Positions 3,001 to 56,923 of a DNA stretch of 56,923 nt are shown piece by piece; position 1 is the first letter of the stretch, and every line of letters starts with the position of its first letter. A program made the translations under genes and the position numbers. Location: positions 1-56,923 of the forward strand of contig JAKLID010000001.1 of NCBI GenBank assembly GCA_022709795.1, given 5' to 3'. Below the pieces are notes generated by a model. That model was not told where the DNA came from and did no database searches. It worked only from the letters and a program-made list of their open reading frames with translations. This stretch comes from Patescibacteria group bacterium. GTDB taxonomy: Bacteria > Patescibacteriota > Patescibacteriia > UBA2196 > GWA2-42-15.

Positions 3001-6000
3001 CCTGGAAGTATTCAGAGTGGACCGAATGTATTAATGGTACAAAAACCAGGACAGCCGGCTGTTATAGCGGTAATCTTTTGGTCGATGATAGTTATTGTGC
3101 TAGTTTGACCAAAGAGATTTTGAGCCAAAGTTGTTCCATCCCAAAAACCTGCACTGAGCAGGGGGGGATAGCTTGCACCTCCAACCAGACTTGTTCGGCT
3201 GGCAGCTTTATAACAGCGAGTAATACTGATTATTGTTGTGTGGGGACGTGCCAAGATGCTGACGCCAGTTGTACTACCTTGACCCTGCCGGCGAGCTTAT
3301 TGACTCCTGGCAGTGACGTAATACCTTCTAGTTTTAATGTAAAACACCCAAGCGCGGTGACAGACAAGGATGGTAATATTCACTTGGTTTATGTTTTTGG
3401 CAAGGCCGGACCAGAGTGTCCCAAGGGTGTTTATTATCAAAAATACACTAAGTCCAGCAATAGCTGGTCAGCGCCAGAAGTGGTGACGGACACGAACAAA
3501 GGATATACTTCTTCGGGCACCGGGCAGTATGTCGAACTTTTATTGCCTTTAAGATTTAAACCAGAGATCGCGATTGATGATAATGACAACCTGCACTTGG
3601 TTTATGTTTTCGGCAATCCCAATGATTATAAAGATGATAACACTATTTATTATTCATACCGAGCCAAGGGCGCCAGCCAATGGGAAAAACCAGTGGTGAT
3701 ACATCTGAGCAATGATGCCAGAAATCCCGAAATTACTGCTTCTACGCAAAGTGTTTGGATTGCCACGCGATTGCGCAATCGCAGTGATAATACGGGTTGC
3801 GATGATGGCAGAAAATCATTGGCTTTATATAAGAAAAGTAATAGCCCCAGCGCAGCTTGGCAAGCTATTACCGTGCAAGATTGGGCGTGCATGAATTACT
3901 ACCCCAATACGGCCTCCCAGGGCGCTTTGAATTATGTTTATGTTTATTCCAGAGGCACCGGCGACTCCAAGGCCTGCAGTTATTTTAAATGCGAAAATTC
4001 TAGTTGTAGTGGACCAACACAACTGATGGATGCTTCTTGCTCAGAGCAAGGCGCTGGCATGGCATTAGACGGGTCAAATAATCCATACTTTGCCATAAGC
4101 GTGGGTGATACTAGTACGATAAAAATATTTAAGGCTGATAGCGAGTTACTAAGTTTGTCTGGCGAAAAAAATCAGGCCGTTATTAGTTCCGGCTTTGATG
4201 ATCAAAATAATTTTTATTTATTAACAACTGATACTCCTAGTCCGGAAAATGACATCAGTTTTGCTTATGATGAGACAAATTATCAAACCCAAAAATATGC
4301 AATCTTAAAAAAAGATTCTACCGGCAATTTGACAATCGGCACACCCTTAACGGCGGTTTCCAGCCAACCCAATAATACTATGGAAGGCACCTTGGCAGTG
4401 ACGAGCGATAATGCCATGGCAATCTGGATAGATTTGAAAGATGGTTATTTGCACTGGCGCTGGCTGAATGGCGCGCCACTCAACAAGGGTACCTCGCCTG
4501 TTTGCGGTAATGGGGCAGTAGAATCAGGCGAAACTTGCGATGGCTCGGCTGGCACGCCAGCCAATGCTACTTGTGCGGCGAATTGTCTGAGCTTTACTTG
4601 TAATGGCGGCTATCAGCTGAATACCGCGCGAACTGGTTGTGAGGTATCAGCAGCTCCAGCCTCGGCTGACAGCTCCTGCGAGAGTAAGGTGTCTGCTACA
4701 GTGAACGGCAATGAGTATTTTATCTCTCCGAGCGGCAATGATACTAATGGCGGGACCTTGAACGCGCCATTCAAAACTATCACCAAGGCGCTCTTGGCTG
4801 CCAATCCTGGTGATACAATAACTCTCCGGGGCGGAACCTATAAAGAAATAATAAATGCGGGTGGAACTGGCGGGCAGCCAGGAGAATATTTGTTGATTAG
4901 AAATTATCAGAATGAGGCAGCGATCATAGATGGCACTGGCTTGGGCGGTGAGGCTTGTCTCAATTTTATCAATTCATCATATGTAAAAATAAAGGGACTG
5001 AAAATCACTGGCTGCGATCGGAGTGGTATTATTATCGGGAACAATAGCTCGATTGATGAGGTCGAGGTTTATAATATTAATAAATCAACGACTCAGCGGG
5101 GCCGAGGCGTGGTGATCTCTGGTACGGCAAGCGCTAAAAAAACTGGGACAGAGTTGGTGAATTCCATTATTAGAGATAATCAGGGAACGCAGGGAACGAG
5201 TGGCGTTTATATTTGGGACGCGGATAGTTTGTGGCTGTGTGGCAATACAATTTATGGGAATAATGATGATGGAATAGACGGTCTGACCGGAGCGATAAAT
5301 TCAACTTTTGAAAATAATTATATTTATGACAACAAGGGCGATGGCTTGAAACTCGGACAATTTGGGAGTAATGGCAGCGCCGGAAACGAAGCCAAAAATA
5401 ATATGATAAAAAATAATATTTTTTATAACAATTCCAACGGACTCACGATTACTGGTTTTAATAACAAGATATATTATAATACCCTGGTGCGTGGCAATAC
5501 CAGAAGTAATACTTTTGTCTTGAGTGGCAAGGATAATATTATAAAAAATAACCTGATTGGCACGAGTGTTATGCTGGCCAATGACTTGGCCAACCAGACA
5601 CACAATCCGGCGAGTTTTCAGCTGGGTTATAATCTTTTTTACCCGACTGGCAATAGTATAACTTACGGAGAGAGTCTGAGCGCGGCAAAATTGATCTATG
5701 GCACGATGGGTGATCTGTGCTTTAATGAAAGTTTGGGCTGCAATTCGGTGGATGATGCGCTAGGCCTTGTTAATTCGGCCAATGGCGACTTTCGGCTGGC
5801 GGCTACTAGCCCGGCGATTGGCAAGGCAGACGGAACGGTTGGAATTAATAGAGATTATGCGGGGACGACCAGGCCGCAAGGGTCGAGCTATGATATTGGC
5901 GCTTATGAATATGTGAGTGGCCAAGTTTTGGGAGTGAAGATCCAAAAGGTTGATGAGCTGACAAAAAAACCAGTGGGGACATTGTTTTTAGCGCTGATTT

Positions 6001-13030: not shown

Positions 13031-15253
13031 TTATTTTTTAATATATTCTTTGGAGTCTTCCAGTTTGATACTGATCAGTTTGGAGATACCATCTTCACCC
13101 ATAGTGACGCCATAGAGCAGCTTGGCTTTTTCCATAGTGGCGCGGTTGTGGGTGATGACAATAAATTGTGTTTTGTGGGAGAGGTCGGAGAGAATTTGAG
13201 CGAAGCGAAGAGAATTGGATTCATCGAGAGCGGCATCAACTTCGTCCAAGACAACAAAGGGTGCGGGATTGGAGGAAATAATAGCGCAGATCAGAGCAAT
13301 ACTCGTCAGGGCGCGTTCGCCGCCCGAGAGGATGCTGATGGATTTTAATTTTTTGCCGGGCGGGGTGGCGTAGATTTCAATACCGCTGTAGCCGTCTTTG
13401 GATTTTTCTTGAAAGAAATTGGTGGCCGGAGAATTGTCAGCAAGAGATTCTTCCTCGGCTGGCTTGAAATCTTCCTTGATCAGGGAGAGCTCTGCTTGAC
13501 CGCCGTTGAAGAGAATTTTAAAATATTTTTGGAAATAAGTATTAATCTCGTTAAAAGATTCTGACATTTGTTTTTTGATAATCTGTTCCAAATCAGTAAT
13601 TACTTTTTTGAGGGAAGCAATTGTCTGGTTTAGATCATTGGTCTGAGCGGTCAAAAAATCATAACGCGCCTGAACCCGCTGATACTCTGTTTCCACTTCC
13701 GGATCTAGGCCGCCAATGATTTCTAGTTGGCCCTTGAGCCGGTTTATTTTATCTAGGATGGAGAAATTTTGTGCCTGGTCACCCTGGGGCAGGGAAGCGG
13801 TTCGGAGCACTTCGAGGGAGCCCAGTTCCTGAATAATTTCTTGTTTCAAATCAAAGCGTTTGGTTTCGACTCTGGCCAGAGAGATTTTGACTTCATTGAG
13901 CTGATTGTTGGAAAGAGAAAAAGCCTGCTGGGCGGCTTGATATTTTTGCTGGGTTTGCCAGAGGGCAGAGCGTTTGGCCTCATCTTCAGAGAGGAGGTGC
14001 TGAATTTTTGTCTGTAGTTCTCCGGCCTGATGATCCAGGTCGGCGATTTTTTTATCCAAAGCTCGCAGTTCCTGGGGCGGTTCAGGTTTGTTTGCCACAG
14101 CGTCTTCGGCGCGCAAATAGGGCTTGATGAAGAGTAGGAGTGATTTTACGCGGTCATTCAGATCAGCCAGAAGTATTTTGAAACTAGACGCTGCCAAGCC
14201 TCGCCCCAAATCAGCCAAAGCTTTTTGGCCCAGGGAATTGATATTTTCAATTTGTTGGTTGAGCTCAGTTATTTTATCCAAAGAGAGGGTTTTGGTATTG
14301 GTATGGGGCCGGGTTTTTTCAACGAGGGATGATTTCATGGTCCAGAGTTCTTCTCTGGTGCGCATTTTCTTATCCAAAACAGCCTGCTGCTCCAGCCGCA
14401 ATTTTTCTATTTCTTGATTTAAGCCGCTATTTTTGACAATATTATCCAGCTCAGCCTCTAATTTTTTCCACTGATCCTCGTGGATTTTTTTATCAGCCTC
14501 AAGTTGGTTTATTTTGCTCAATTCTTGCTGGTAATCACGATCAATAGTTTGCCAGTAAGCGCTGTAATAGTTGAGGCGCAACTCATTGAGCTCAGCCTCA
14601 ATCTCCTTGCGTTTGTTGAGTTTTTTGATCTGACGAGTGAGGAGATTTAATTGGGGTTCCATTTCTTTGAGACGGATGTTGGCGGTAGTGAGGTTTTGCC
14701 AGACCTGATTGAGCTTGACAATGGTTTGATTTTTTTTGATTTGATATTGTTTGACGCCGGTGGCTTCGTCAAAAAATTCCTTGCGCTCTTCTGGGGTGGC
14801 GATGAGAAAATTATCAATCATACCCTGGCCGATGATGGCATAGGTGCGGTGGCCAAAATTGGCTTGAGTGAGGAGCAAATTAATGTCGGCGAGTTTACTT
14901 TTGCCACCATTGATCAAATACTCACTTTCGCCATTACGATAGATTTTCCTGGTAATCAAAAGGTCGCGGTAATCAATAGGCACTTTCCCGTCAGTATTAT
15001 CCAATTCCATAGAGACCTCGGCCAGACCCAGGCGGGCTTTTTTGTCAGAGCCGGAAAAGATGACATCCTCGCTTTTTTTGCCACGGAGGGTCTTGATACT
15101 TTGTTCACCCATGACCCAGCGGAGAGAGTCGGCAACATTGCTTTTGCCAGAGCCATTGGGGCCGACCACGGCAGTGATGCCACTCGTGAATTCCAGGGTG
15201 GTTTTTTTGGCAAAAGATTTGAAGCCGTTGATTTCTAGCTTTTTTAAGTACAT
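13031..15253 (-). CDS. smc: SMC-family chromosome condensation ATPase, unusually short (~740 aa), no recognisable hinge
   Basis: N-terminal head MYLKKLEINGFKSFA...VVGPNGSGKSNVADSLRWVMGEQS, C-terminal head LSGGERALTSIAL and FVVLDEVDAALD, with continuous coiled-coil-like sequence between them. The ATG at 15253 is preferred over the TTG at 15268. Confidence 0.85.
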   Translation of the reverse strand: MYLKKLEINGFKSFAKKTTLEFTSGITAVVGPNGSGKSNVADSLRWVMGEQSIKTLRGKKSEDVIFSGSDKKARLGLAEVSMELDNTDGKVPIDYRDLLITRKIYRNGESEYLINGGKSKLADINLLLTQANFGHRTYAIIGQGMIDNFLIATPEERKEFFDEATGVKQYQIKKNQTIVKLNQVWQNLTTANIRLKEMEPQLNLLTRQIKKLNKRKEIEAELNELRLNYYSAYWQTIDRDYQQELSKINQLEADKKIHEDQWKKLEAELDNIVKNSGLNQEIEKLRLEQQAVLDKKMRTREELWTMKSSLVEKTRPHTNTKTLSLDKITELNQQIENINSLGQKALADLGRGLAASSFKILLADLNDRVKSLLLFIKPYLRAEDAVANKPEPPQELRALDKKIADLDHQAGELQTKIQHLLSEDEAKRSALWQTQQKYQAAQQAFSLSNNQLNEVKISLARVETKRFDLKQEIIQELGSLEVLRTASLPQGDQAQNFSILDKINRLKGQLEIIGGLDPEVETEYQRVQARYDFLTAQTNDLNQTIASLKKVITDLEQIIKKQMSESFNEINTYFQKYFKILFNGGQAELSLIKEDFKPAEEESLADNSPATNFFQEKSKDGYSGIEIYATPPGKKLKSISILSGGERALTSIALICAIISSNPAPFVVLDEVDAALDESNSLRFAQILSDLSHKTQFIVITHNRATMEKAKLLYGVTMGEDGISKLISIKLEDSKEYIKK

Positions 15254-15445
15254 AATATAGAAACTCAAAACTCAAAATTTAAAACTCAAAAGTATTGATA
15301 AGCATAAACAAAAGAGACCGGGATGGGTCACTTTTATTATATCAGGAAAAGGGTTTTGGGCAAAAGAGAGGTGGGGTGGTAATTAATTTAATGAGTGTCG
15401 GAGTCCCTGGCGGAGACTCCGACGGGGCGGAAAAATTCAATTTCA

Positions 15446-15530
15446 GATAACGTATCGGCACATGCGAAGTTGTGTAGCAATTTGCGCGGAGGCTTTCGGA
15501 GAAAACCGCAGCCGCATGTGCCTTGTTATC
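15446..15530. repeat. attC-like structured site 3 (distal end of the array)
   Basis: GATAAC-GTATC-GGCACATGCG ... CGCATGTGCC-TT-GTTATC: an imperfect palindrome with an asymmetric unpaired spacer. The left arm is nearly identical to that of site 2. Confidence 0.6.
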
Positions 15531-15594
15531 GGATGTAGCGAAAAGTTTTTGTTTTGCCGAATGGCAAAATGATTATTTGGGGGTATTTTAATTT

Positions 15595-16194
15595 TTATTT
15601 TATTTCAATATTTTTTACGATTTTATCAAAATCTGACTTTATTTCTGGAGTCTTTGATGTGTAGTTTGCGCTTATACGGACTATGCCACCTTTACTATTC
15701 TTAAATATGATAGCGTCTACTGTACCCACGCCATCAAATATTGAATAGGAATACTGAATTGCCGACTTTCCACCAACCGCAATGTTTTTGTATTTTGAGT
15801 TAAAACTTGATTCTGGGTTATTTTTTGCCCAATTCAACGGCGAATCATTATTTTTGTTCTCATAAGATATAATTTCAATTCCCGGAGTGTCGCCTTCAAA
15901 TTTCTTTTCACCAATCCACAAATATGCGCGCTCAACAACCTTTCCGCCCATATCTTGATTTTCATTTAAATTATACTGAGCTGGATATTCAAAACTCACA
16001 CCGATTTTTTCACTTGCAAATATCTTACTACTAACATGTTTTGACGTGGATGAAACAACTTCTTTTCTTAGTTCAGTCTCTGTTTTTTTTGATTCAGTGG
16101 TAACTGTTTTTGGGAAATTACCCTCTGAATTTGAGCAACCAGAAAGCATGATGGATGTGCTTAGTGCGAATGCGATGCAAAATTGCTTTTTCAT
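15595..16194 (-). CDS. Cassette ORF: lipoprotein of unknown function
   Basis: MKKQFCIAFALSTSIMLSGC carries a lipobox (LSGC). The start is taken at the ATG at 16194, because the upstream part of the tracked ORF lies in the repeat frame. I recognise no family. Confidence 0.7.
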   Translation of the reverse strand: MKKQFCIAFALSTSIMLSGCSNSEGNFPKTVTTESKKTETELRKEVVSSTSKHVSSKIFASEKIGVSFEYPAQYNLNENQDMGGKVVERAYLWIGEKKFEGDTPGIEIISYENKNNDSPLNWAKNNPESSFNSKYKNIAVGGKSAIQYSYSIFDGVGTVDAIIFKNSKGGIVRISANYTSKTPEIKSDFDKIVKNIEIK

Positions 16195-16263
16195 TTTGTT
16201 ATATAAAAAATAAAATACCCCCAAATAATTAACGCCGAAGGCGCAAAAACTTTTTGCTATTTC

Positions 16264-16444
16264 CGATAACGTATCGGCACATGCGAAGTTGCGCCGTGGA
16301 TTATTGATTATTTTTGTTAATATCGCTTTATTTGATTATACCACTAAACTTACCATTTCGTCAGCGCAATTTGGGAGAGGAAATTTTGCATACCTTTAAA
16401 ATATAATTGCGCAAAATTTCTGAACCGCATGTGCCGTGTTGTCT
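16264..16444. repeat. attC-like structured site 2
   Basis: CGATAAC-GTATC-GGCACATGCG ... (long loop) ... CGCATGTGCC-GT-GTTGTCT. The loop contains the GCAATTTGGGAGAGG motif, which is related to loops of site 3 and the satellite site at 38658. Confidence 0.6.
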
Positions 16445-16560
16445 GATGTATTTTTTCATCTTCTGCTTAATTGCACAAAACTTGTTTATTCTACTAGAAA
16501 ATTTGATTTTTTAAATTAAAAGTTTTTGTTTTGCCTTTAGGTAAAACAGATTATTTGGGG

Positions 16561-17703
16561 CTATTTTTTATTTTTTATCAAAATTTGTCCTCTTCCTATC
16601 CACTCAATCAACTCGTTGGCTTGGGCGTCGATATTCAAAAGAAGTTCTGGGTAGCATGGCTGCAATTCGGCGTTAAAAATCAACAACTCTTTTAATCCCC
16701 GTGCGTAGTCAAATCCTAGCTTTTCGCAATTCTGTAAAAATTTTCTTCTGAAAGGTATTAGCTTTTCTTTTCGTGAATCTGATACAACTGAAAAAGTTTT
16801 CATATCCGATACAATCCTATGAAAAACTCGCAATAATTCCATTGTAATTCGGCAGAGCTGAATATCTGAGCTATTGGTAATTTCTGAAAATTTTGTAATC
16901 AGTGGCATGATGTGATCGACCTCGTAGGCTTTGTCTGAATTGTTCACCAACATCAATAGTCTTTCTATGCCCACAACTGAAAATGACCAAAAATTTTCCC
17001 AATGAACTAAATCGACGATTGTGCCGTCCTTGTAAATTGGTCGCCACAACAAATTTTCGATTGAGGCTATATCCAATGGCTCATCCAAATTATCCGTTTT
17101 GTATAGAATTTCATTTCGATAACCCCACGCAACGGGTGGAGTGAAATTTAGAGCCAATAGAGTTGTTCTTGTTTGGTCGGGTATGAATTGTTCGTCGTTG
17201 ATTCCAAATTCTTTTGCAATCTTGATAAATGGGTCGGCTTCGAGATTTTTATCAAACTTATATTTTCCAGCAGTTATTTCTTCGGCTTTTCCGCCTGATA
17301 AATATGAAATAACGAAGCGTTGTGGCTCTAGCCCCAACTCATTTATCAAAAACTCGAAAATTTTTCTGATAGTAAAATCGGCGATGTCTTTGCGTTGCTC
17401 ATCCGTAACATCCTTTCCGCCAACAAAGCCTGACACATCAGCCATATCAAAAAGCAAAAGATGGATATCGTCCATGGCATCATTGAAGTCATTAACTCGT
17501 ATCACTTGTTGAATTGTTGAAAAGTTGTAGGCCTCAGAATTGTCTAAATAATTACCGAATTTTTCAAGAAATGGCGCCTCACCAAAACTTATGTTGAAAT
17601 TTCCAGGAAAGCCCTTGTTCACAATCAAAGAGCGAGGAATCTTTTGAACTCCTGAATATTTAGAAAAATTTTCAATTTTATTCCTTAACTCTAAATATTT
17701 CAT
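16561..17703 (-). CDS. Cassette ORF: stand-alone alanyl-tRNA-synthetase N-terminal (catalytic/tRNA-recognition) domain homolog, divergent
   Basis: By-eye collinear similarity to the AlaRS N-domain: LELRNKIENFSKYSG ~ AEIRQAFLDFFHSKG; ISFGEAPFLEKF ~ TNAGMNQFKDVF; STIQQVIRVNDF...HLLLFDMADVSGF ~ TSQRCVRAGGKHNDL...HHTFFEMLGNFSF; AWGYRNEILY ~ GPCGPCTEIFY; VVGIERLLMLV ~ GMGLERIAAVL; CRITMELLRVFHRIV ~ LRVIADHIRSCAFLI. No editing or C-Ala domains are present. Confidence 0.65.
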   Translation of the reverse strand: MKYLELRNKIENFSKYSGVQKIPRSLIVNKGFPGNFNISFGEAPFLEKFGNYLDNSEAYNFSTIQQVIRVNDFNDAMDDIHLLLFDMADVSGFVGGKDVTDEQRKDIADFTIRKIFEFLINELGLEPQRFVISYLSGGKAEEITAGKYKFDKNLEADPFIKIAKEFGINDEQFIPDQTRTTLLALNFTPPVAWGYRNEILYKTDNLDEPLDIASIENLLWRPIYKDGTIVDLVHWENFWSFSVVGIERLLMLVNNSDKAYEVDHIMPLITKFSEITNSSDIQLCRITMELLRVFHRIVSDMKTFSVVSDSRKEKLIPFRRKFLQNCEKLGFDYARGLKELLIFNAELQPCYPELLLNIDAQANELIEWIGRGQILIKNKK

Positions 17704-17829
17704 AAAAAATAAAAAATAGCCCCAAATAATCCCGCCGTAGGCGGAAAAACTTTTAATTTAAAAAATCAAATTTTCGTCTTTGTTCATTGCACGGAACCCG
17801 AAATTACCACCAAAGATGAAAAAATATTT

Positions 17830-17927
17830 CAGACAACGTTCGCGTGTATGCGATGTTTTGTGGAGCGTAGCGGAACAAAATATGGGTGGAGCGACCTTAG
17901 GAGCGTAACCGCATACACGCTGTTATA
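17830..17927. repeat. attC-like structured site 1
   Basis: AGACAAC-GTTCGC-GTGTATGCG ... CGCATACAC-GCT-GTTATAC. The architecture matches sites 2 and 3, with compensatory changes in the inner stem. Confidence 0.55.
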
Positions 17928-18124
17928 CGCTGTTCAAAAAATATTTTTCATTCAATTTCATTTTGACAGGCTTTTTATTCAATAATCATAAATTTGTTTT
18001 TTTGTTTTGGATTTTGGGCAGAGGGGTTAGGGGTGAATGCCCAAATCCAAAACTCCTTATTCTGTTTGAGGGAGGGGCAAGAGGGGAACTAAAGGGGTGA
18101 ATTGCCCCGACCGAAAACACTTCT

Positions 18125-20419
18125 TTAATCAAAATCTGTCTGATCTTTTTTATTAAAGTTATTCAGAAATAAATCAATTGCCTCTTTATTGTTTTGATAT
18201 TGCTCTGAGTTTTCTTCTTTTATTCCTTCCAGTTTTGTTTTTAACTCCTCTAAATCAAGGAAATCTGACAAACTTTTATAATTAAATCTTTTTGTAACCC
18301 TCGTGCCATAGTCACCAATAGTTTGGCTTCTGCTTTCCGAAACGAATTTAGCTATGAAGACCAGTAATTTTTGATTGGCATCACTAATTGTTTTTATGAA
18401 GTCTCCCCACTTACTATCTTTGCTCCATTCTTTCCAACGGTACAAAATGTAAAGTAAGTTTTTATGTTTCAATAAATCATCAGGGTTAGTTTCTTCGATT
18501 TTTTCAAGACATAATTTTTGTAAATCTTCAATTTTATCTTCCGGCACAACAAATTCGTCCGAATCTTTGCCCTTTTCTTTTCTTGATGACTCCAAAGAAA
18601 CTTTTTGTATTGGACCGAAGAGACCTTTGGACTGCGGTATAGCTTCTTTTAATATTTCATAATTTTTGCTTTTATCAGACTCTCTTTTTAGCAACTGATA
18701 AATTATTCTCATCAAATCCATATCTATTCCGAAATCCCACATCCCAACTTTTTCTTCGGGCAAATCATCGGAAATGTTGAAAAGTGTCTTAACTACATTC
18801 TTTGCATTATCTTGCGAAATACGAGTTTGATCACCTGTAAAATCTTGAATCCTTTGTAAAACCTTCCTGATTTTCTTTTTCTCAATGTACTCCCTAATAA
18901 TCTTTTCAAGATCTTCTGTTGAATTTGTTTTGCTTAAAATTTCCTCAATTTCAAACTGGCTTAATTCTTCCTCGTCACCACCAGGAATTAGCGTAAAGTA
19001 GCTATCAAAATTATTTGTAGCACATACCCTTAAGTTATTGCTCCAAATAGACTGCCATTCGTGTCCGTGCGTTGAATAACCGTACTGAAAAATGCCGTCA
19101 ACTTGTGGAAATAATCTTTTTAATAACTCAAGAACAGATTCTTTTATTTCGCTTGGTAGTGCATTCAACGCTTTTTCAATTTCATCTTTTCTTGGATTGT
19201 TATCCCTTGAACTTCGCTCGTTCCTATCAGTAGAAGTAAAAATCACACTTTTATCACGCATGAATAAGTAAAAATCCGGCGCAAAAATTCTAATTGCCTC
19301 AATGGCAATGAAATCTATCGGGTTTACTTCCATTATCTTACCTTGATACATCTGAGAGATATTAAATTCCAAACTGCTTGCGAACCTTTTTACATCTCGT
19401 ATGTTTTTGAAAAAATCTTTGAAACCTGAATGATAAACATTTACCCAATACGGTTCGTCTTGTCCAAAATATTTTTGTGCAGATTCAGGTAATATGCTCA
19501 AAATCCGATCTAGCTCTTTGAAAAGAAATGTGGATATTTTTGATGGTTTTGCAAAAGGCACGTTAAAATGCACTTGGACTATCTTATTCAAATAATCCTT
19601 TCCTGAAACACCAATTTGCTCTTCAAGATTTTGCTCAACAATTTTTCTATCAAAAGCCAAGAGATAAATTGTATTTGGAAAGTCTGCGTTTATCCGAATT
19701 AGTCTAAAAATTTGTTTAATTTCTGATTGATTTAGTCTATCAATATCGTCAATGACGATCACAATTTTTTTATTTCGTTCCAAAAGCTCTTTTTTTATTT
19801 CGTTTTTTAATTCTGTAATAGATTTTTTATTCACTAAATACTTCTGTTGAAAAAAATCTGACAAACCAAGCAAAAAATCTTTAAATAATCCAACCAAAAA
19901 TAAAACGAGACCTATCCCAAAAAATGTATATTTAATCCAGTTTGCCGGTATCTCTAACCATTGTATTATTTGGCTGGACGAAATACCGATTAAGCCCAAG
20001 CCCAGAAGAACTTTTGATGAAAGAATACTTAAAGTTTCCTTTTTGGGTGTAAGACTTAGTAATTTAGAGTACAGCTTCAGTTTTTCTGCAATCTTTTTAT
20101 CTTTTGATGAGCCATGTTTAATCTCAAGTTCTTTGGCTATTTCGTTAAAAAAGTGAGTACTGAGATTTTTTTCTTCGGAAAAGCCCCACGGATTAAATCC
20201 AATAATTGTTGGTTTATCGTCGTTTTTTGTGGCCTCAATGTACTCATTGGCTAGGTTAATAACTGACGATTTTCCAGATCCCCATTCACCATAAATCGCA
20301 ATAACAAGACTTTCTTTTTCTTTCCAATCCAAAAGTGCTTTCCCAAGATGTTGAGAAAATCTTTTTCTGCTTAGGAAATCATCTTTTTCGGTTTCGATTG
20401 GTTTGTCGTAAATAAACAT
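18125..20419 (-). CDS. KAP-family P-loop NTPase with inserted transmembrane helices
   Basis: Walker A IAIYGEWGSGKSSVINL. Two hydrophobic helices (VLLGLGLIGISSSQII, FFGIGLVLFLVGLF) lie between Walker A and Walker B (IVIVIDDIDRL), the hallmark KAP topology. The start codon is 2 nt after the res stop. Confidence 0.9.
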   Translation of the reverse strand: MFIYDKPIETEKDDFLSRKRFSQHLGKALLDWKEKESLVIAIYGEWGSGKSSVINLANEYIEATKNDDKPTIIGFNPWGFSEEKNLSTHFFNEIAKELEIKHGSSKDKKIAEKLKLYSKLLSLTPKKETLSILSSKVLLGLGLIGISSSQIIQWLEIPANWIKYTFFGIGLVLFLVGLFKDFLLGLSDFFQQKYLVNKKSITELKNEIKKELLERNKKIVIVIDDIDRLNQSEIKQIFRLIRINADFPNTIYLLAFDRKIVEQNLEEQIGVSGKDYLNKIVQVHFNVPFAKPSKISTFLFKELDRILSILPESAQKYFGQDEPYWVNVYHSGFKDFFKNIRDVKRFASSLEFNISQMYQGKIMEVNPIDFIAIEAIRIFAPDFYLFMRDKSVIFTSTDRNERSSRDNNPRKDEIEKALNALPSEIKESVLELLKRLFPQVDGIFQYGYSTHGHEWQSIWSNNLRVCATNNFDSYFTLIPGGDEEELSQFEIEEILSKTNSTEDLEKIIREYIEKKKIRKVLQRIQDFTGDQTRISQDNAKNVVKTLFNISDDLPEEKVGMWDFGIDMDLMRIIYQLLKRESDKSKNYEILKEAIPQSKGLFGPIQKVSLESSRKEKGKDSDEFVVPEDKIEDLQKLCLEKIEETNPDDLLKHKNLLYILYRWKEWSKDSKWGDFIKTISDANQKLLVFIAKFVSESRSQTIGDYGTRVTKRFNYKSLSDFLDLEELKTKLEGIKEENSEQYQNNKEAIDLFLNNFNKKDQTDFD

Positions 20420-20421
20420 AG

Positions 20422-23097
20422 CTAGTTTTTAAATGCCTCCGCCAACTGTTTAAAGCTCGTCGGTTTGTACTTGTCCCATTCTTCCTGCTTCACATAAAGC
20501 ATTTTGTAGGCGATTTTTTTCTGTCTTTCGCTTGCGTCCTCGCACCATTGCCCCAACCTCTTTATCTTTTCAATATCGTCTAAATCTTCTCGTCCTTTTG
20601 TTTCCACAATATAAATCGTTTTATTGTCCGTTTTTACGAAAAAGTCGGGATAATAACTGGAAATTGCCCCGCTCGCGTTTTTATAATCAATTTTGAAATG
20701 AATTTCATAATAATTTTTAGCGAAAGAAATCACATCGTCAGCGCCTTCTAAAAAGTCGGCAAATTCAAGTTCAAAATCGCTATCCCCGACAATTTTATTG
20801 AATACGCTCTTTTTGGGTAGCAAATATTTTTTATCGGTAACAACAAACGGTCTTGCACTGCTTATTTTGAGATAATTTTTTATTTCCGTGTCGCCAACAT
20901 CTTGCACGGTCAGATTATTTATTTCCTTTTTGAATGTTTCCACGATAGTTTTTACCGCTTCCAACTCGGATAAATTTCTCAAAATATTTGCGTCATTCAG
21001 ATCAACTTTTTCGCTGAATAAATCGTTGCCGATAAATTCTTTTACTTTGCCAAAAAGTATATCGTAGCACCCAAAAAGGCGCAGTTCTTTCATTATTCTT
21101 TGCACAAAAAATCCGACAACGCTTTGATAATTTGGTTCAACAGTACTATTCAAAATCGTTGTGTGATGAAGTTTGTCATCAATTACTTCCTTAAAAACAA
21201 TCTCTTTCTTTTCTTCCTCTGAAAATTGTTTTATTGAGATTTTTTCGTGCTTAAATCCGGCAACATTCAATAAATTAAGATTTTTATATTCTCTTTGTAT
21301 TCTCGGCGTTAAAACCGGCAATTCAATGTCTAAATTTTCAATGTCTTTTTTTACATTCTGATTATCAACTTCAATAACAGTCGGTGTAATCGGCGAGCCG
21401 GAACGATCCATTTTTCGTTTTTCTAGCTCAACGCCTTCCGCCTTGATTGATTCCACAAACTCCATAAAGGCGGGCGTGCCGATAACGCTCACATATTCCT
21501 CAACATCTTGACCAAAAAACATTCGACGAAGACCGCGACCCAATGTCTGCTCCGGCAATATCTTTGAATCAGAGCCATACGGGCGTAAACCAACGATTGT
21601 CGTTACATTTTTGACATCCCAACCCTCTTTAAGCATTAAAACGGAAACTATCACCTTGTAGGGGCTTTCCATGCTGTCTATCTCATTAGCTTTCTTTCTC
21701 AAATCTTGCAGTTCTTTTTCCTTTTTTCCGGTAACTGTTTCCGATATTTCACCGCTCTTGTTTGTATGAATGGTTAAAACCGCGCCTTTCAATTGCGGAT
21801 AACTTTTTTCCAAAAACTCCGCCACATCGTCGCAATTTTTTGTGTCGTCCGTCATTATGAAAAGAATCGATTTTTTGCCGGTCGGCTCAAGTTCCTTGTA
21901 TGTTTTTCCCCATTCTTCAACTCCTAGCCGGATGTAGTCCTCGTATTTTTCAGAAAATATTGAGCTTTGTTTTTCTTGCAATTTCGCTCGGCTCGCCTGA
22001 TCCGGCAAAACCGGATTTTTTACCACACCCTGATGTATTGCTTCAACCAAAGGATAATCAGAAACGGTTTGCACAAAAATTTCCCCACGATTATTTTTTG
22101 GCGTAGCCGTAACATCAATTTGCAAAGCTAATTTTTTGCCCTTTTGCAATAATCTGTTGTGGATATCTTCAATAGATTTAAACCACGCCATTTTTGGATC
22201 GTGGATATGGTGGGCTTCGTCGTTGATAACCATTAACTCATCAACATCGCGGACTATTTCGCCCAAATCAATTTTTGAATCATTGGTTTTGCCGACAACC
22301 TTGTCGCCCAAAAAATAATCTGATGTATCTTCATCTTCAAAACTCGCTTCGTTGATACTACCTTCATAAACTCTATGGATGTTAGTCAGAAAAATATTTC
22401 CCGATTTTGAAATCGTGCCAACTTCGTCCTGTAAATGTAGTTTGATTTGAAAATCATCTTGCCAATTTTGCCCACTATATCCGTTATCCGGCAAAATCGG
22501 ATCTTCGTAAAATATTTTCAATCCTTCAAAATCGGTTTTAATTCTATCTAAAACGATAATGTTCGGCGTGATAAGCAAGAAGTTTTTAGAAAGTTCTGAG
22601 TTTTCCTCGTAGAGTTTGTGAAAATATGACCAAGCCAAGAGCAAGCTCATTACTTTTGTTTTTCCGCTTCCTGTTGCCATTTTAATCACAAAGCGGAGCC
22701 AGTCCTCGGTAAACATATTCGGGCTTACCCGACCCAATTTATCAAACTTGATCAAATCGTATTTATTGGCAACTTTCTCAACATCATAAATCCAAATAAT
22801 CGTTTCTACCGCTTCTCGCTGGGCGTAATAATATTGAAAGGCAACACTTGTGCCGTCTTTGGCAAAAATTGTGTGCGGTTCTTTAAACCACCAATTCAAG
22901 AGTGCTTTTGAAGTTTCGCTCGCGCCTTCGTAGTTGTTTTTTCGCCACTCAGCTACTTTTTCCCGAAGTTCCGGCACAAAAGGTGGCAAAAGTTTTTCAT
23001 AACCTTCTTTGCGCAAATCTTCATCAGCCGGAAACCACCTGATTGACGGATCGAGTATTTGGAATTTATCTTTGGGAAAATTTTTGTGTAATGCCAT
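20422..23097 (-). CDS. res: Type III restriction enzyme Res subunit (SF2 DEAH helicase plus C-terminal PD-(D/E)xK nuclease)
   Basis: Motif I KMATGSGKTKV, motif II VINDEAHH, motif VI LPEQTLGRGLRR, and C-terminal YYPDFFVK...IYIVETKG. The start is set at the ATG at 23097, 4 nt after the mod stop; the longer tracked ORF overlaps mod. Confidence 0.9.
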   Translation of the reverse strand: MALHKNFPKDKFQILDPSIRWFPADEDLRKEGYEKLLPPFVPELREKVAEWRKNNYEGASETSKALLNWWFKEPHTIFAKDGTSVAFQYYYAQREAVETIIWIYDVEKVANKYDLIKFDKLGRVSPNMFTEDWLRFVIKMATGSGKTKVMSLLLAWSYFHKLYEENSELSKNFLLITPNIIVLDRIKTDFEGLKIFYEDPILPDNGYSGQNWQDDFQIKLHLQDEVGTISKSGNIFLTNIHRVYEGSINEASFEDEDTSDYFLGDKVVGKTNDSKIDLGEIVRDVDELMVINDEAHHIHDPKMAWFKSIEDIHNRLLQKGKKLALQIDVTATPKNNRGEIFVQTVSDYPLVEAIHQGVVKNPVLPDQASRAKLQEKQSSIFSEKYEDYIRLGVEEWGKTYKELEPTGKKSILFIMTDDTKNCDDVAEFLEKSYPQLKGAVLTIHTNKSGEISETVTGKKEKELQDLRKKANEIDSMESPYKVIVSVLMLKEGWDVKNVTTIVGLRPYGSDSKILPEQTLGRGLRRMFFGQDVEEYVSVIGTPAFMEFVESIKAEGVELEKRKMDRSGSPITPTVIEVDNQNVKKDIENLDIELPVLTPRIQREYKNLNLLNVAGFKHEKISIKQFSEEEKKEIVFKEVIDDKLHHTTILNSTVEPNYQSVVGFFVQRIMKELRLFGCYDILFGKVKEFIGNDLFSEKVDLNDANILRNLSELEAVKTIVETFKKEINNLTVQDVGDTEIKNYLKISSARPFVVTDKKYLLPKKSVFNKIVGDSDFELEFADFLEGADDVISFAKNYYEIHFKIDYKNASGAISSYYPDFFVKTDNKTIYIVETKGREDLDDIEKIKRLGQWCEDASERQKKIAYKMLYVKQEEWDKYKPTSFKQLAEAFKN

Positions 23098-23101
23098 AAT
23101 A

Positions 23102-25324
23102 TTAAATATTAACCTCAATAACTTTTGTCGTATCGTTGCCGAATATGTCAATCACCTTGATTGCGATTTTCATTTTGCCTTTTGGCGCATCTTTGAAAGC
23201 TGAAGTTAGCTCAAGCGTTCGGTCTTTTTTGGTTCTGAAAGATTGCCATTCGTTTTCAAAAATATAACTTCCTGTCCATTCTTCTTTTTCTTCGCCTGTT
23301 CTTTCGTCAACTACGCGCACGATTTCTCTTTTACTTTCAAAATCAAAATCCACTGACCAATAATCAATCCAGTCCGTCCATTTTTTAGTCAATACTTCAC
23401 GCTCAATAATATCGGTGTTTTTATCTTTGGAAATTTTTATCACCTGGCCATTTTCAATGATTATTTTATTTCCGCCGGATTGTAATTTTTCTTCCACTTC
23501 GCCAGTGTTATCTTGGTTATAGAAAACCGAAAAATCGGATAGCTCAATCGCTACTTCTTTGGCGTTGCCTCGTCCGCGAATTATTGGTTTAACTTCAATG
23601 TAGGCGATATCATAAAATTTGACCTGTCCTTTTTCCACCGCTTTTTTATCAAAAACTTCGCGGGGAATGACTTTGAATTGTACATCAATGCCGAGCTTTT
23701 TGGCGCTTTCAAAATCTAGCCCCATTTCATAGTCAAATCCCAAAACATCGGCTTTGGTTATTTTCTTTTCTTTGCACTCACTGATTATTTTTTCCAGAAA
23801 ATCATTGGTAATAGGCGAATCAATTGATCCAATGGCGATTAATCTATCTCTCTTTTTTCCGACAAAAGCATTAAAAGAATCAACTGGTTCGGCTTTGTAA
23901 GCTGATAAAATAAGTTTTATAAATTCTTTTTCTTTATTTTCTCGTTGGATTCTTTTTTCTTCTTCACGCAAATTTTCATTCACAGTCAAATACTTTGCTC
24001 GTTCGTATTTACCGATGTTTAAAATCTCAAACGCCCGAAAATCCTTGCCGGCTTTTTTAAGTTCTCTCTGCACGCCAATCATTCTTTTGCGAGTAGTGTG
24101 AATAGAAAATTTGCCGACATCGGAAGCAATCCACTTTCTACCCATTTTTTCAGCGACAGCAATCGTGGTTCCTGATCCATTAAAAAAGTCTGCTACTAAA
24201 TCGCCCTCTTTTGTAGATATATCTATAATTCTTTGTAAAAGTGGCTCTGCGTTTTCTGTTGGATAACCAGTTTTGAAAGCATAGCCTGCAACATCAGTCC
24301 AGTTTGTGTCCAAGGTGTCTGTGTTTTTTGCCTTTACCCAGTATTGTAGCTTATTTGGATTGTTTGGATTTATTCGAAGCAAACCTTCTTTATACATTTT
24401 CTGTATATTGTCTTCGCTGAATTTAAAATGCTTTCCTGTAGGTGGATAAAATATTTTCCCATCAATTACTCTTTCTCTTGGTCGTCTTTCTCCGCTACTA
24501 TCATCTGAGGCACGCCAGTAGCCCGCGCGTTCATTTTCCAGTACTTTGGTAATATGTTGGAATTTTGAATTATTCTTAAAATAGACAAACAAGGAGTCGT
24601 TCGCCGTTGGCAGTGAGACTTTACCCTGTTCGGTAATATTTTTCTTTATCCTGTTAATGACAATTTCGCTCTGAAATTTATCTTTACCAAAAATCTCGTC
24701 TAACATTGCCTTGGTATAATGACCCCAATGCCAATCAATACGAAAGAAAAAAATACCATCATCAGCGAGCAAATCTTTCATTAGTTTAACTCTTTCATAA
24801 AGCATTGATAGAAAGGTGTTTCCGCCACTACCCCAAGTATTGCGATATGCAAATTCTTCAATTATAGACGGCGATTTTTGAATTGTTTCGCCTTCACCAA
24901 TTGATACTCCAATTGAATAATCTAACCCTGCACTAAATGGCGGATCAATATAAATTAGTTTTAGCCCGCCTTCTGCTTCAATTTGTTTTCGCAAAGGACC
25001 ATTTTTGAGCGATGATAAAATCAACTTATTGTCGCCCCAAATAAGTTTATTTGACCAACCCTTGATCTGTCTGCCAGAAGTATCAAATAGTGTAGTTTGT
25101 GCTGTGATTTTTTCTTCGCTTCTCGGCTCGTCAATATGCTCAATTGCCTGAAAAGGCAAAACCATATTTTCTACTTCATCAGTTTTGCCATTCCACAAAA
25201 GCTCAACCTCACGTTCGGTATCAAAAAGCAAAAACCGGTATTTTTCCGGCAATGGTTTGCCCGATTCCAAATACTTTATAACATCTCTTTTTTCGTTGTC
25301 GGTGAGGTTTAGTTTATTGCTCAT
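23102..25324 (-). CDS. mod: Type III-like N6/N4 DNA methyltransferase Mod (beta-class motif order) with ~300-aa C-terminal extension
   Basis: LIWGDNKLILSSL, catalytic motif IV LIYIDPPFSAG upstream of AdoMet motif I DFFNGSGTTIAVA, collinear with EcoP15I Mod. The extra C-terminal region ends in VIDIFGNDTTKVIEV. Confidence 0.9.
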   Translation of the reverse strand: MSNKLNLTDNEKRDVIKYLESGKPLPEKYRFLLFDTEREVELLWNGKTDEVENMVLPFQAIEHIDEPRSEEKITAQTTLFDTSGRQIKGWSNKLIWGDNKLILSSLKNGPLRKQIEAEGGLKLIYIDPPFSAGLDYSIGVSIGEGETIQKSPSIIEEFAYRNTWGSGGNTFLSMLYERVKLMKDLLADDGIFFFRIDWHWGHYTKAMLDEIFGKDKFQSEIVINRIKKNITEQGKVSLPTANDSLFVYFKNNSKFQHITKVLENERAGYWRASDDSSGERRPRERVIDGKIFYPPTGKHFKFSEDNIQKMYKEGLLRINPNNPNKLQYWVKAKNTDTLDTNWTDVAGYAFKTGYPTENAEPLLQRIIDISTKEGDLVADFFNGSGTTIAVAEKMGRKWIASDVGKFSIHTTRKRMIGVQRELKKAGKDFRAFEILNIGKYERAKYLTVNENLREEEKRIQRENKEKEFIKLILSAYKAEPVDSFNAFVGKKRDRLIAIGSIDSPITNDFLEKIISECKEKKITKADVLGFDYEMGLDFESAKKLGIDVQFKVIPREVFDKKAVEKGQVKFYDIAYIEVKPIIRGRGNAKEVAIELSDFSVFYNQDNTGEVEEKLQSGGNKIIIENGQVIKISKDKNTDIIEREVLTKKWTDWIDYWSVDFDFESKREIVRVVDERTGEEKEEWTGSYIFENEWQSFRTKKDRTLELTSAFKDAPKGKMKIAIKVIDIFGNDTTKVIEVNI

Positions 25325-25499
25325 AGTTTTTTATTACCTATTGTTATTGTATTCGTTTTCCCCTTATAAATAAATCGTTTTCGTAGCGAAGCGGAGAAAA
25401 CACCTTATACCCCTTTCTAATAAATAAAAAAACAAATTTATTCCCCTTTTTAAAAAGCCTGTCAAAATTTCTTATTATCGGAAAAATATTTTTTGAATT

Positions 25500-25577
25500 G
25501 CGTATAACTCGTTTATATGCGAAGTGTTGGCGTAATAGTGACCTTTTATTGTCTATTAGGCGAACTTCGTTGTATAA
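25500..25577. repeat. Recombinase-proximal structured site 0 (attI-like position)
   Basis: GCGTATAAC-TCGTT-TATATGCGAAGT ... ACTTCG-GTTGTAT. The left arm is the same type as the attC-like sites and the right arm is truncated. The right box overlaps a TATAAT (25573-25578) about 48 nt upstream of the recombinase ATG. Confidence 0.45.
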
Positions 25578-25625
25578 TTAAATAGAGGATGTTAATAAGT
25601 TAATATTAACAAAACTCAAGTAAAT

Positions 25626-26456
25626 ATGCAAAATTTTAATTATTTGTTAAAAACAGAAGAAGAACTAAAATTGAGAAACTATAGCCGAAAAACTATAAAA
25701 AGTTATTTAGCGTGTTTACAAAAATATATTGATTTTTTAACTAAGAATTCAACGAGCATAAAAAATTTGTCATCAGAAGAAAAGGTAAAAAAGTTTTTGT
25801 TAATGCATCAAGATAGGGGCGATGCCGGACAAACCATAAATTTGTATTTAAATGCTATTAAATTTTTTTATCGCGAGATTTTAAAATCAAATGAGAAAAT
25901 TGATTTAAAGTTTGCCAAAACCAGTAAAAAATTACCAGAGGTTTTATCGCGGTTAGAAATTGAAAAAATTTTAGCCAGTATTGAAAACAAAAAACATAAA
26001 TTATTAATTGCTTTAAGTTATGGCGCGGGACTGCGGGTGAGCGAGGCAATAAATTTAAAGATTAAAGATATTGATTTAGAAGAATTAACCATTCATTTGA
26101 GAGAAGCTAAAGGCAAGAAAGATCGTTTAACTATTTTTTCAGGAAAAATTAAAAAAGATTTGCAAAGAATAATGGTTGGCAAGTCTGCCAATGATTATGT
26201 TTTCGAAAGCGAAAGACAGGGTAAATTAACAGAGAGAACAGCGCAAAAAGTTTTTTATAAGGCCTTGAAAAAAGCGGGGATAAAAAAGCCAGCTTCTTTT
26301 CATTCTCTACGGCATAGTTTTGCCACCCATTTATTGGAAAATGGCGTGGATGTGCGCTATGTGCAGGAGCTTTTGGGGCATGCGAATATCCGGACAACGC
26401 AGATTTATACCAAGGTGATAAATCCGAGTTTGAAGAATATAAAGAGCCCGCTATAA
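25626..26456 (+). CDS. Tyrosine site-specific recombinase (Xer/IntI-like, SAM-like N-domain)
   Basis: N-domain LRNYSRKTIKSYLACLQKYIDFL. Catalytic boxes GLRVSEAINL (R), KGKKDRLTIF (K), HSLRHSFATHLL (HxxR) and LLGHANIRTTQIYTKV (H...Y). The spacing between the K box and the HxxR box is Xer-sized. Confidence 0.9.
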   Translation: MQNFNYLLKTEEELKLRNYSRKTIKSYLACLQKYIDFLTKNSTSIKNLSSEEKVKKFLLMHQDRGDAGQTINLYLNAIKFFYREILKSNEKIDLKFAKTSKKLPEVLSRLEIEKILASIENKKHKLLIALSYGAGLRVSEAINLKIKDIDLEELTIHLREAKGKKDRLTIFSGKIKKDLQRIMVGKSANDYVFESERQGKLTERTAQKVFYKALKKAGIKKPASFHSLRHSFATHLLENGVDVRYVQELLGHANIRTTQIYTKVINPSLKNIKSPL

Positions 26457-26461
26457 AAAAT

Positions 26462-38574: not shown

Positions 38575-38627
38575 AAATGATACGCGAATAGTTTTGCGAA
38601 TATATGCGAATGCTTTTGCGAATAAAG

Positions 38628-38655
38628 AAAACCCGGGCGAGGAGCTCGGGTTTTT
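38628..38655 (+). terminator. Intrinsic terminator after the histidine phosphatase gene
   Basis: AAAACCCGGGCGAGGAGCTCGGGTTTTT. Confidence 0.6.
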
Positions 38656-38657
38656 AT

Positions 38658-38733: not shown

Positions 38734-38743
38734 AATTTTAATT

Positions 38744-39532: not shown

Positions 39533-39550
39533 AAAATTAAAATTATTTCA

Positions 39551-56798: not shown

Positions 56799-56923
56799 AG
56801 CGAAATTCCTGACGGGTGAGTTCCGTCCCGCACGAATGGCATAACGACTTGAGAACTGTCTTAATAATGGGCTCGGCGAAATTGCAATGGCGGTAAAGAT
56901 GCCGCCTCCTCACAGTTAGACGA

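Follow-up and report, generated by a model that had tools for sequence, protein, structure and literature searches.

Integrons collect genes through a tyrosine recombinase, IntI, whose gene adjoins a simple double-stranded site (attI) and stands at the head of an array of cassettes, mostly single open reading frames (ORFs), that share one orientation and read away from it. A folded imperfect palindrome (attC), bounded by YAAC and GTTR, lies 3' of each ORF; an asymmetric unpaired region marks one of its strands, exchange falls inside AAC/GTT, and the first bases of a cassette pair with the far box of its own site. Here we describe an array with the same features in a 56,923-nt stretch of DNA from a Patescibacteria group bacterium (assembly GCA_022709795.1, contig JAKLID010000001.1, positions 1 to 56,923), hereafter the window. 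A recombinase gene in it adjoins a core site, S0, and cassettes, which across this and related arrays are mostly single ORFs of about 0.7 kb, each have a folded site, S, 3' of the ORF. Their contents include defence and toxin-antitoxin genes (type III restriction-modification and PifA in the window, HicA in a related array, L094), and among solved structures the integron integrase VchIntIA is nearest to the recombinase. We consider it probable that the array captures genes site-specifically in the manner of an integron and that a non-IntI recombinase runs it. An initial annotation made from the letters of the sequence had proposed an integron-like array with a Xer-sized recombinase, and conservation, linkage, cassette turnover and box pairing across cassettes support that proposal.

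The system departs from integrons in several respects. The recombinase lacks the IntI-specific extra domain (intI_Cterm) by which membership is defined, and recombinases without that domain have been judged not to be integron integrases even beside attC sites (Cury et al., 2016; PMC4889954). Where attC is a hairpin of R and L boxes with extrahelical bases, S has a predicted three-way junction with TTTGGGNGRAG, GAACC and a 3-nt bulge, and the left half of S almost duplicates the attI-like site. The cassettes carry long terminal inverted repeats. Promoters lie inside cassettes or S loops, and our promoter scan called no outward promoter (Pc) at S0. The hosts belong to the candidate phyla radiation (CPR). 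Integrons are very rare in Bacteroidetes and Firmicutes according to the IntegronFinder 2.0 paper, and the CPR is mentioned neither there nor in the archaeal-integron paper. Our literature search found no description linking CPR or Patescibacteria to integron-like arrays.

Single-recombinase Xer/dif systems (XerA, XerS/difSL, XerH/difH) are a second point of comparison. The dif site of XerS adjoins its gene, as S0 does here, the recombinase is Xer-sized and passes the XerA model, and S0 is dif-like, a palindrome whose arms measure 11 bp. In contrast to the 11-6-11 arrangement of terminus sites, S0 has a 7-bp rather than a 6-bp centre; it does not lie at a skew switch, and after it comes an array that can number 13 folded sites or more, with cassettes. 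Dif sites of Thermococcales do not adjoin xerA (PMC2958812).

Among integrative mobile elements exploiting Xer (IMEX), the attP(+) of CTX phage resembles S in that two inverted dif-like half-structures on one strand fold to mimic the host core with an imperfect centre, a likeness that would imply one strand exchange and resolution by replication. CTX phage integrates through this forked single-strand hairpin. Unlike IMEX, the cassettes are neither phages nor plasmids; they are many tandem units with three-way junctions that encode single accessory proteins rather than a self-transmissible or replicating unit, and none was matched in viral contigs. The pdif modules of Acinetobacter are likewise discrete, lie between Xer-type sites, are reshuffled among replicons and have an inverted symmetry per module. 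However, pdif sites are XerC/XerD sites on plasmids, plain duplexes of 28 bp whose orientation alternates, whereas the present sites are folded, 90-210 nt long, in one orientation, chromosomal and beside a recombinase gene.

Recombinase and core site

25626-26456, plus strand: tyrosine recombinase gene, 276 aa, IntI/XerA-like without the IntI-specific extra domain (Pfam Phage_integrase and Phage_int_SAM_4)
25497-25525, plus strand: S0, double-stranded core site (attI/dif analogue), ATTGCGTATAA-CTCGTTT-ATATGCGAAGT
25549-25578, plus strand: recombinase promoter, TTGTCT-18-TATAAT (promoter scan; by-eye alignment of 20 upstream regions)

The initial annotation had described the recombinase as Xer-sized and too short for the IntI domain, and the alignments bear this out. 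The match to integrase_gron (TIGR02249) is split in two, with model positions of about 178-247 left out between the pieces, and residues 199-237 of the VchIntIA chain, which hold the IntI-specific insertion, have no counterpart in the protein (best PDB match 2a3v, 165 bits; XerA 4a8e, 146 bits). In the comparison of IntI with XerC/XerD profiles, which had been suggested as a check, the IntI model stayed below its cut-off (219.8 vs. 265), the XerC and XerD models were far under theirs (181-187), and XerA_Arch (NCBIfam NF040815) was narrowly passed (223.1 bits vs. 220). There are about 8000 homologues, many near 70% identical across Patescibacteria, in agreement with the 'Cand' Xer-like group described by Smyshlyaev et al. 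(PMC8138268), and these cells may well have no other Xer-like enzyme.

S0 consists of 11-bp imperfect inverted arms around a 7-bp centre (11-7-11) and lies 100 nt upstream of the recombinase start codon. It is conserved immediately upstream of the gene at 23 loci (consensus ATTtcgnatAA-CTcgTTt-nTATgCGAAgT), adjoins it in every lineage examined, and has a mean arm identity of 6.35/11 at a 7-nt centre vs. 2.6-4.6 at other spacings. Its left arm resembles the XerC arm of E. coli dif. Within the window S0 is unique at three or fewer mismatches; a second S0-like site lies 14 kb away. By its sequence, S0 is an ordinary double-stranded tyrosine-recombinase core site rather than a hairpin, and it has no right arm. 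Of the folded 'site 0' in the initial annotation, the left part (25497-25525) is real, while conservation does not extend to the complementary box or to the GTTGTAT at 25569. That right arm and the crossover at 25569 were rejected, since the segment is the -10 region of the recombinase promoter. S0 nonetheless has the position of an attI, a primary insertion site beside the integrase gene, and its AAC is exactly where the proximal cassette ends. Between the -35 and -10 boxes the inner-arm motif of S0 occurs a second time (CTATTAGGCGAAC in the window, TATTATGCGAA in relatives, most of which show this second copy of TTATGCGAA), which suggests that the recombinase regulates its own expression.

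The same findings could be read in another way: the recombinase would be the CPR dimer resolvase, S0 its dif, and the cassettes IMEX-like hitch-hikers that integrate through a folded hairpin and make up a parasitic array. The family passes the XerA cut-off and is ubiquitous and about 70% conserved in CPR, the 11-7-11 palindrome with its left arm is dif-like, S0 sites without any cassettes exist (e.g. L020), and both the hairpin of CTX phage and the gene-adjacent dif of XerS are precedents. But S0 is not at a switch of GC skew, which is positive on both sides, and dnaA/dnaN lie about 15 kb away; the skew and the nearness of dnaA argue against a conventional terminus role. The constant position of S0 beside the gene also speaks against this account, as do integron-sized, single-ORF cassettes in one orientation with no replication, transfer or phage functions and the absence of S and S0 patterns from the 2.9 million viral contigs scanned. 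Its mechanism overlaps with that of an integron-like platform and differs only in the beneficiary. We consider it unlikely, though it is the foremost of the alternatives.

Folded sites

15440-15537, plus strand: S3, distal folded site (covariance model R1, 83 bits, in training set; folding z = −3.1)
16259-16450, plus strand: S2, folded site with a large P2 insert (R1, 69 bits, E = 1e-12, outside training set)
16364-16335, minus strand: promoter in the S2 insert, CTGACG-18-TATAAT, aimed at the lipoprotein gene (promoter scan)
17826-17934, plus strand: S1, folded site (attC analogue; R1, 98.4 bits, in training set), made of outer box ATTTCAGACAAC, bulge, P1 GCGTGTATGCG/CGCATACACGC, P2, P3 and outer box GTTATACGCTGTT

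In an integron-like platform these sites would be the counterparts of attC. S3, S2 and S1 each have a YAAC box, a 5-6-nt 5' spacer, a 10-11-nt inner box, its complement, a 2-3-nt spacer and a GTTR box, an architecture that the initial annotation had read correctly. The inner stems differ in a compensatory manner, as it had also claimed (GGCACATGCG/CGCATGTGCC in S3 and S2 vs. GTGTATGCG/CGCATACAC in S1). Single-sequence folding gained modestly over shuffles (z = −3.1, −2.6 and −1.2 for S3, S2 and S1), and a generic scan for this architecture (AAC, spacer, 9-mer, complement, GTT) returned 26-58 matches per shuffled window, for which reason we rejected it as sole evidence. The S sites are not statistically remarkable alone, and their significance therefore rests on conservation.

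Twelve S sites from the window and relatives' loci were aligned by MAFFT, without fitting the alignment to a covariance model. RNAalifold gave 28 pairs, 17 of which change on both sides and thus extend the compensatory pattern to relatives. The common design runs from an outer box ATTTCNNNYAAC through a 3-nt bulge, solely on the 5' side, to an 11-bp P1 that is free to vary in sequence while pairing is kept. P2 begins AAGTT...AATTT with an invariant G.T and is followed by a conserved single-stranded TTTGGGNGRAG, P3, GAACC, the return strand of P1 and GTTRNNNGATGT. P2 and P3 accept inserts of at least 100 nt, and S sites range from 90 to 210 nt. On this consensus S is predicted to be a three-way junction and not the plain hairpin first described. 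On visual inspection S shares YAAC and GTTR boxes and a paired inner box with attC, with the bulge and junction where attC has extrahelical bases.

In the 49 sites matched by covariance model R1, this time in an alignment fitted to the model, 92.7% of cells were paired, vs. 70.5% in shuffles and 31-50% with the partner slid, and the covariation score was 0.487 vs. 0.144 in shuffles. Conservation of the fold beyond chance, one of the proposed checks, is thus seen across sites, with modest z at single sites. Two G.T pairs are near-invariant (44/48 and 40/46). Because the opposite strand would carry A.C mismatches at these positions, the plus strand folds better.

Covariation and conserved G.U-type pairs would suit a structured RNA equally, or an intergenic regulatory repeat (terminator, insulator or promoter carrier) at which no recombination occurs. 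The conserved junction sequences, the promoter in the S2 loop and the terminator-like hairpins that flank the cassettes agree with such a role. Yet the better-folding strand is antisense to the ORF in 57 of 62 cassettes, and there is no Rfam match: at gathering scores Rfam found the 23S rRNA alone in the window, and at E up to 10 nothing credible over the array. The sites are confined to the neighbourhood of the recombinase gene and to a single orientation, their left half copies the recombinase-linked S0, and the complementarity of boxes across cassettes (below) has no RNA explanation. We therefore regard an RNA or regulatory element as very improbable.

Linkage of the sites to the recombinase gene

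Covariance model R1, built from the 12-site alignment, was run on both strands of 979 kb, comprising the window and 80 loci fetched with both flanks via recombinase homologues. It gave 49 matches and placed S sites in about 20 other CPR loci. All 44 CPR matches are on the strand of the recombinase gene and 43 are upstream of it; the remaining one is a degenerate site in the window (38621-38734). Starting instead from the site, we scanned a metagenome collection for the sequence pattern of the S left half, which matched at least 119 contigs. Twelve of the 80 contigs fetched carry a recombinase homologue, and in 11 of these the gene is 0.7-1.9 kb downstream on the same strand. The largest array (L153) has at least 13 sites in 12 kb. 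The cassette-array design recurs across the CPR, and probably in Bacteroidota too. In DPANN loci with homologous recombinases (L031, L036) we found no repeated sites.

Some arrays hold further irregular elements. A nine-site array (L167) contains a 219-nt fragment of a recombinase homologue on the opposite strand (5307-5525). In four loci a right box GTTGTGC..AAAT and a left box ATTT..GCACAAC lie 15-40 nt apart, next to S or S0, with sequence rich in GAGCG/AGCG between them (L007 9290-9340, L013 9810-9873, L023 about 215-299, L027 3490-3531); these look like empty cassettes or stubs.

Cassettes and their turnover

17935-25496, minus strand: cassette 1 (Pfam, PADLOC; inverted repeats I4 and I22, at 17922-17949/25481-25508 and 17988-18007/25422-25441), with genes for a PifA-like KAP NTPase (18125-20419), type III Res (20422-23151) and type III Mod (23102-25324)
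16451-17825, minus strand: cassette 2, 380-aa protein of unknown function (16561-17703), with nested inverted repeats I8, I2 and I1 (16438-16462/17813-17837, 16497-16527/17745-17775, 16549-16582/17698-17731)
15538-16258, minus strand: cassette 3, lipoprotein (15595-16194 from ATG; the listed ORF reaches 16224), with inverted repeats I7 and I5 (15525-15551/16244-16270, 15572-15598/16203-16229)

The array region is bounded by an SMC gene (13031-15268, minus strand) and the recombinase gene, between which five minus-strand genes are grouped into three blocks. Pfam and PADLOC confirmed the early calls of type III mod, res and KAP/PifA-like genes. The lipoprotein call also held (signal peptide ending LSGC), and the 'AlaRS-like' label of the 380-aa protein goes back to a weak 41-residue match (E = 9e-5).

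The median interval from site to site is 704 nt, and the strand opposite S carries the longest ORF in 57 of 62 intervals. Cassette products are single accessory proteins, with no replication, transfer or phage functions among them. As the gene-order comparison suggested at the outset shows, cassette content differs between close relatives, which carry methyltransferase, NUDIX, HIT and APH-like genes and many of unknown function. The right flank (flippase, Wzy, T2SSE, glutamate dehydrogenase), by contrast, remains syntenic among relatives; the L089 locus, with a recombinase 79% identical, has this flank in common with the window but not the left one. An all-against-all comparison of array proteins found almost no sharing between arrays.

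The 380-aa protein has 22 homologues in 5.8 billion sequences, and its gene is a cassette in three arrays: the window, L094 (an Uhrbacteria array with nine S sites) and L108. Around this gene L108 and the window are 88% identical over 1.66 kb, and the homology stops at 17840, 3 bases beyond the AAC of the S1 left box, which supplies one breakpoint of the kind predicted at the boxes. All three arrays have an S2-type site 3' of the gene, whereas the 5' site differs. A homologue 77% identical in L095 (10001-11131) is an ordinary dcw-cluster gene with no S nearby, between a glycosyltransferase family 4 (MraY-type) gene and murD. This setting hints at a role of the protein in peptidoglycan synthesis, and the gene may show the chromosomal source of a cassette. 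The 171-nt non-coding end of cassette 1 (window 17932-18100) is 98% identical to positions 2120-2290 of L018, from a Moraniibacteriota genome with a recombinase 62% identical to that of the window. This end includes a hairpin, TTTTGGATTTTGGGCAGAGGGGTTAGGGGTGAATGCCCAAATCCAAAAC, that recurs after S sites in L007, L009, L013 and L032.

Inverted repeats bracket every cassette, starting at the boxes (GTT / AAC) and running 24-140 nt up to the start and stop codons. They form families common to unrelated genes; a AAAAGTTTTT-hairpin-GATTATTTGGGG module, for example, flanks the lipoprotein and 380-aa genes. Read as AAAAGTTTTT, short hairpin and GATTATTTGGGGNTATTTT, the module lies at 15543-15598, 16203-16254, 16514-16582 and 17698-17754, inverted on both sides of these two unrelated genes, reaches their start and stop codons, and also flanks the 380-aa gene in L094. 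Its hairpins score as inward-facing terminators. Promoter-like sequences are present in the flanking repeat of cassette 1 (read from the sequence) and inside S2 (promoter scan), and cassettes bring their own promoters or use promoters in S loops. Were a cassette circular, the repeats would lengthen the outer stem of S to give a very long hairpin. They may belong to the recognition element, may help the fold to extrude, or may record how cassettes come about.

Inverted repeats around every cassette and an adjacent tyrosine recombinase gene would also be expected of an on/off switch like a shufflon or inverton, in which the recombinase flips single cassettes at the repeats, and in 5 of 62 intervals the longest ORF is indeed on the other strand. 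Shufflons and invertons, however, are found in both orientations, whereas the orientation here is identical in all contigs of the strain and common to 57 of 62 cassettes. The inverted half-structures have unlike centres (about 9 vs. 6 nt) and so are not equivalent core sites, and inversion leaves cassette turnover and the conserved three-way junction unexplained. A phase-variable switch is thus extremely improbable.

Exchange point

In a capture platform that exchanges strands inside AAC/GTT, the bases just outside would be expected to complement the box at the far end of the cassette and not the other box of their own hairpin. We compared the four variable bases beside AAC/GTT in both ways. 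At loci fetched via the recombinase, 22 of 42 comparisons across a cassette were perfect vs. 1 of 37 within a hairpin (20,000 permutations: mean 2.6, maximum 12). Later arrays, consisting of the site-first contigs and L094, which was reached through a cassette protein, gave 17 of 33 across and 3 of 39 within (20,000 permutations: mean 2.9, maximum 12). With both sets joined, complementarity was perfect in 39/75 vs. 4/76, and in L153 it extended to 9 of 12 successive junctions.

The exchange is better placed in the left-hand AAC triplets of the plus strand (15449-51, 16268-70, 17835-37 and 25506-08) than at the right-hand GTT triplets favoured initially (15525, 16438, 17921 and 25569), the last of which is excluded. 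The end of the homology with L108, 3 bases past the AAC of the S1 left box, also bears on this position. With exchange at the left AAC, each S would move together with the gene to its right (in window coordinates), i.e. 3' of the ORF, like attC. Crossover at the right GTT boxes, with S moving with the left gene, was rejected: S0 has the AAC box only, the proximal-cassette repeat ends at that AAC, and the S kept among the three arrays with the 380-aa gene is the one 3' of it.

The left half of every S repeats both arms of S0, the outer one and the inner one (..ATATGCGAAGT). The distance from AAC to ATGCG is 10 nt in S vs. 8 nt in S0, so that as a duplex the left half of S would have a centre about 2 bp too long. 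Folding would change this geometry. The outer arm of S would pair with the right box, giving an outer stem that reproduces the S0 outer arm (ATTTCNNNYAA), and the centre would shrink to a C-G and a G.T pair plus the 3-nt bulge. The inner arm (ATATGCGAAGT) would be rebuilt by P1 stacked on the base of P2, i.e. on the first four P2 pairs. The opposite strand would then read ATTT // CGCATAT, the outer-arm consensus ATTTCGCATA broken by the P3 branch, and the conserved G.T pair would be there because both strands carry the ATTTC version of the arm. In this model, the three-way junction of S appears to imitate S0.

Proposed mechanism

Our model builds on the observed anatomy, conservation and covariation of the sites, their linkage to the recombinase, the turnover of cassettes between genomes and the location of the exchange point; single-strandedness, the strand cut and all catalysis are what we infer. 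The recombinase would use the duplex core site S0 just upstream of its own promoter, and each cassette would bring an S element 3' of its gene. The plus strand, which is the non-coding strand of the cassettes, would when single-stranded fold S into the three-way junction, the P3 branch emerging inside the inner arm. One strand exchange in the invariant AAC between S0 and the folded S of a cassette that is circular or comes in single-stranded would insert this cassette beside the recombinase gene; replication would resolve the product, as in integrons. Exchange between two S sites would excise cassettes. The model predicts the junctions ATATTTCAGACAA|CGTATCGGCACATGCG for a circle of cassette 2, GAATTGCGTATAA|CGTTCGCGTGTATGCG for one of cassette 1, CTATTTCCGATAA|CGTATCGGCACATGCGAAGTTGTGTAGC for one of cassette 3, and ATATTTCAGACAA|CTCGTTTATATGCGAAGT for loss of cassette 1. 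The left box of S3 (ATTTCAGATAA) is predicted to be the outer arm that S0 carried prior to the first insertion.

Several observations weigh against this model. About half of consecutive site pairs lack perfect box complementarity, and one L108 cassette (reverse-complement coordinates 388-1535) has mismatched boxes, AGCT vs. GTCT, in an otherwise perfect terminal inverted repeat. The recombinase family is near-universal and highly conserved in CPR, as expected of a housekeeping Xer, so that capturing cassettes may be a sideline. The recombinase lacks the extra domain with which IntI binds extrahelical bases, which leaves folded-site recognition without a known structural basis here; covariation fits RNA folding as well as DNA folding; and an integron model does not need flanking inverted repeats as long as these (24-140 nt). 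Finally, the reshuffling and circular junctions looked for within the strain did not appear. Contigs of this strain from other samples, found via the identical recombinase or the identical 380-aa protein, all keep the order Mod-Res-KAP-380aa-lipoprotein with no rearrangement (the SMC protein, with the start codon assigned here, had no entry), and no strain-specific circle or deletion junction occurred among the 80 fetched metagenome contigs.

Two details belong with these comparisons. The hairpins on either side of the mismatched L108 cassette have self-complementary boxes. Junction-like combinations in L097, L161 and L162 were rejected as rearrangements, since they come from other organisms and the box types are widely shared.

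Homologues outside the CPR and relation to integrons

Domain-less recombinase homologues in Bacteroidota and in one Oscillospiraceae metagenome-assembled genome have S-like sites downstream of the gene on the opposite strand, at these positions:

L040: 7503-11911
L050: 14494-14617 and 17531-17718
L052: 12729-12914
L054: 11087-11207
L061: 15253-15375
L062: about 3819
L065: 11567-11690 and 14699-14822
L071: about 7385 and 12639

The design of these sites is YAAC, 5 nt, P1, CGAAGG ... P1', T, GTTR, and the ORFs are on the recombinase strand; relative to the array, the recombinase gene is thus turned round. When 54 non-CPR loci were scanned with a stringent pattern, 8 matches fell downstream on the opposite strand vs. 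2 in the other three quadrants together, with upstream flanks holding more than twice the sequence of downstream flanks. Many Bacteroidota contigs break just past the recombinase gene.

A wider proposal, which we put forward tentatively and at somewhat less than even likelihood, is that this is a sister system to integrons that spans phyla. IntI/XerA-like recombinases that never had the extra domain would run arrays in most CPR lineages and, with the gene turned round against the array, in Bacteroidota and some Firmicutes. Their targets would be single-stranded three-way-junction sites imitating their own dif-like core, and the system would represent the missing intermediate between Xer/dif and integrons. 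In that case the repeats and the dcw-cluster gene could preserve traces of cassette making, a question still open for integrons.

What is at stake is the definition of the integron, since the same cassette logic is seen with a recombinase that lacks the defining domain. Surveys that use an IntI-based definition report integrons as rare or absent outside a few phyla and omit the CPR, a very large, mostly uncultured radiation with tiny genomes in which the flux of accessory genes is poorly understood. A folded site visibly derived from a dif-like core offers a testable path from Xer/dif to integrons, and a three-way junction read without the IntI domain poses a problem of recognition. The arrays are also a large unexplored pool of cassettes, defence systems included. 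The terminal inverted repeats, together with the chromosomal relative of the 380-aa cassette gene, give a lead on how cassettes arise, and the probable Bacteroidota versions occur in groups with cultured species, which makes experiments feasible.

Second locus and other features of the window

38575-39573, plus strand: second locus without a recombinase gene (R1, 32 bits, E = 6e-4; sequence reading)

The second locus begins with four direct repeats of the S0 inner-arm motif, TTTTGCGAAT/ATATGCGAAT (38580-38625), followed by the degenerate S, whose right half is intact. One minus-strand ORF with inverted-repeat ends follows (38744-39532, 262 aa), and then the S0-like core ATTTCAGTTAA-ATCGTTG-ATATGTGGAAT (39545-39573), in which AAA replaces AAC. 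The locus resembles a lone cassette lodged at a secondary site and may be compared with a cluster of attC sites lacking an integron integrase (CALIN).

The chromosomal neighbourhood to the left of the array holds dnaA, dnaN and yidC, with dnaA/dnaN 13-16 kb from the array. To the right of the recombinase gene are genes for a flippase, Wzy and a T2SSE ATPase and, farther on, the 23S rRNA gene. GC skew is +0.13 to +0.20 left of the array and +0.2 to +0.33 right of it; it is negative across the array alone (16000-26000, −0.10 to −0.16) because the array genes point the opposite way. The cassette genes oppose the strand bias of their surroundings, and of the two strands of S the folding one is G-rich.

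Judged by the nearest recombinase homologues, which are Patescibacteria, the host is a CPR bacterium, in agreement with the initial annotation. The 23S rRNA match at 53630-56923 spreads model positions 1-2083 over 3294 nt, so that about 1.2 kb is inserted. The insert is an rRNA intron of the type typical for CPR, and an ORF within the gene (56304-56762) encodes a LAGLIDADG endonuclease (Pfam E = 8e-28).

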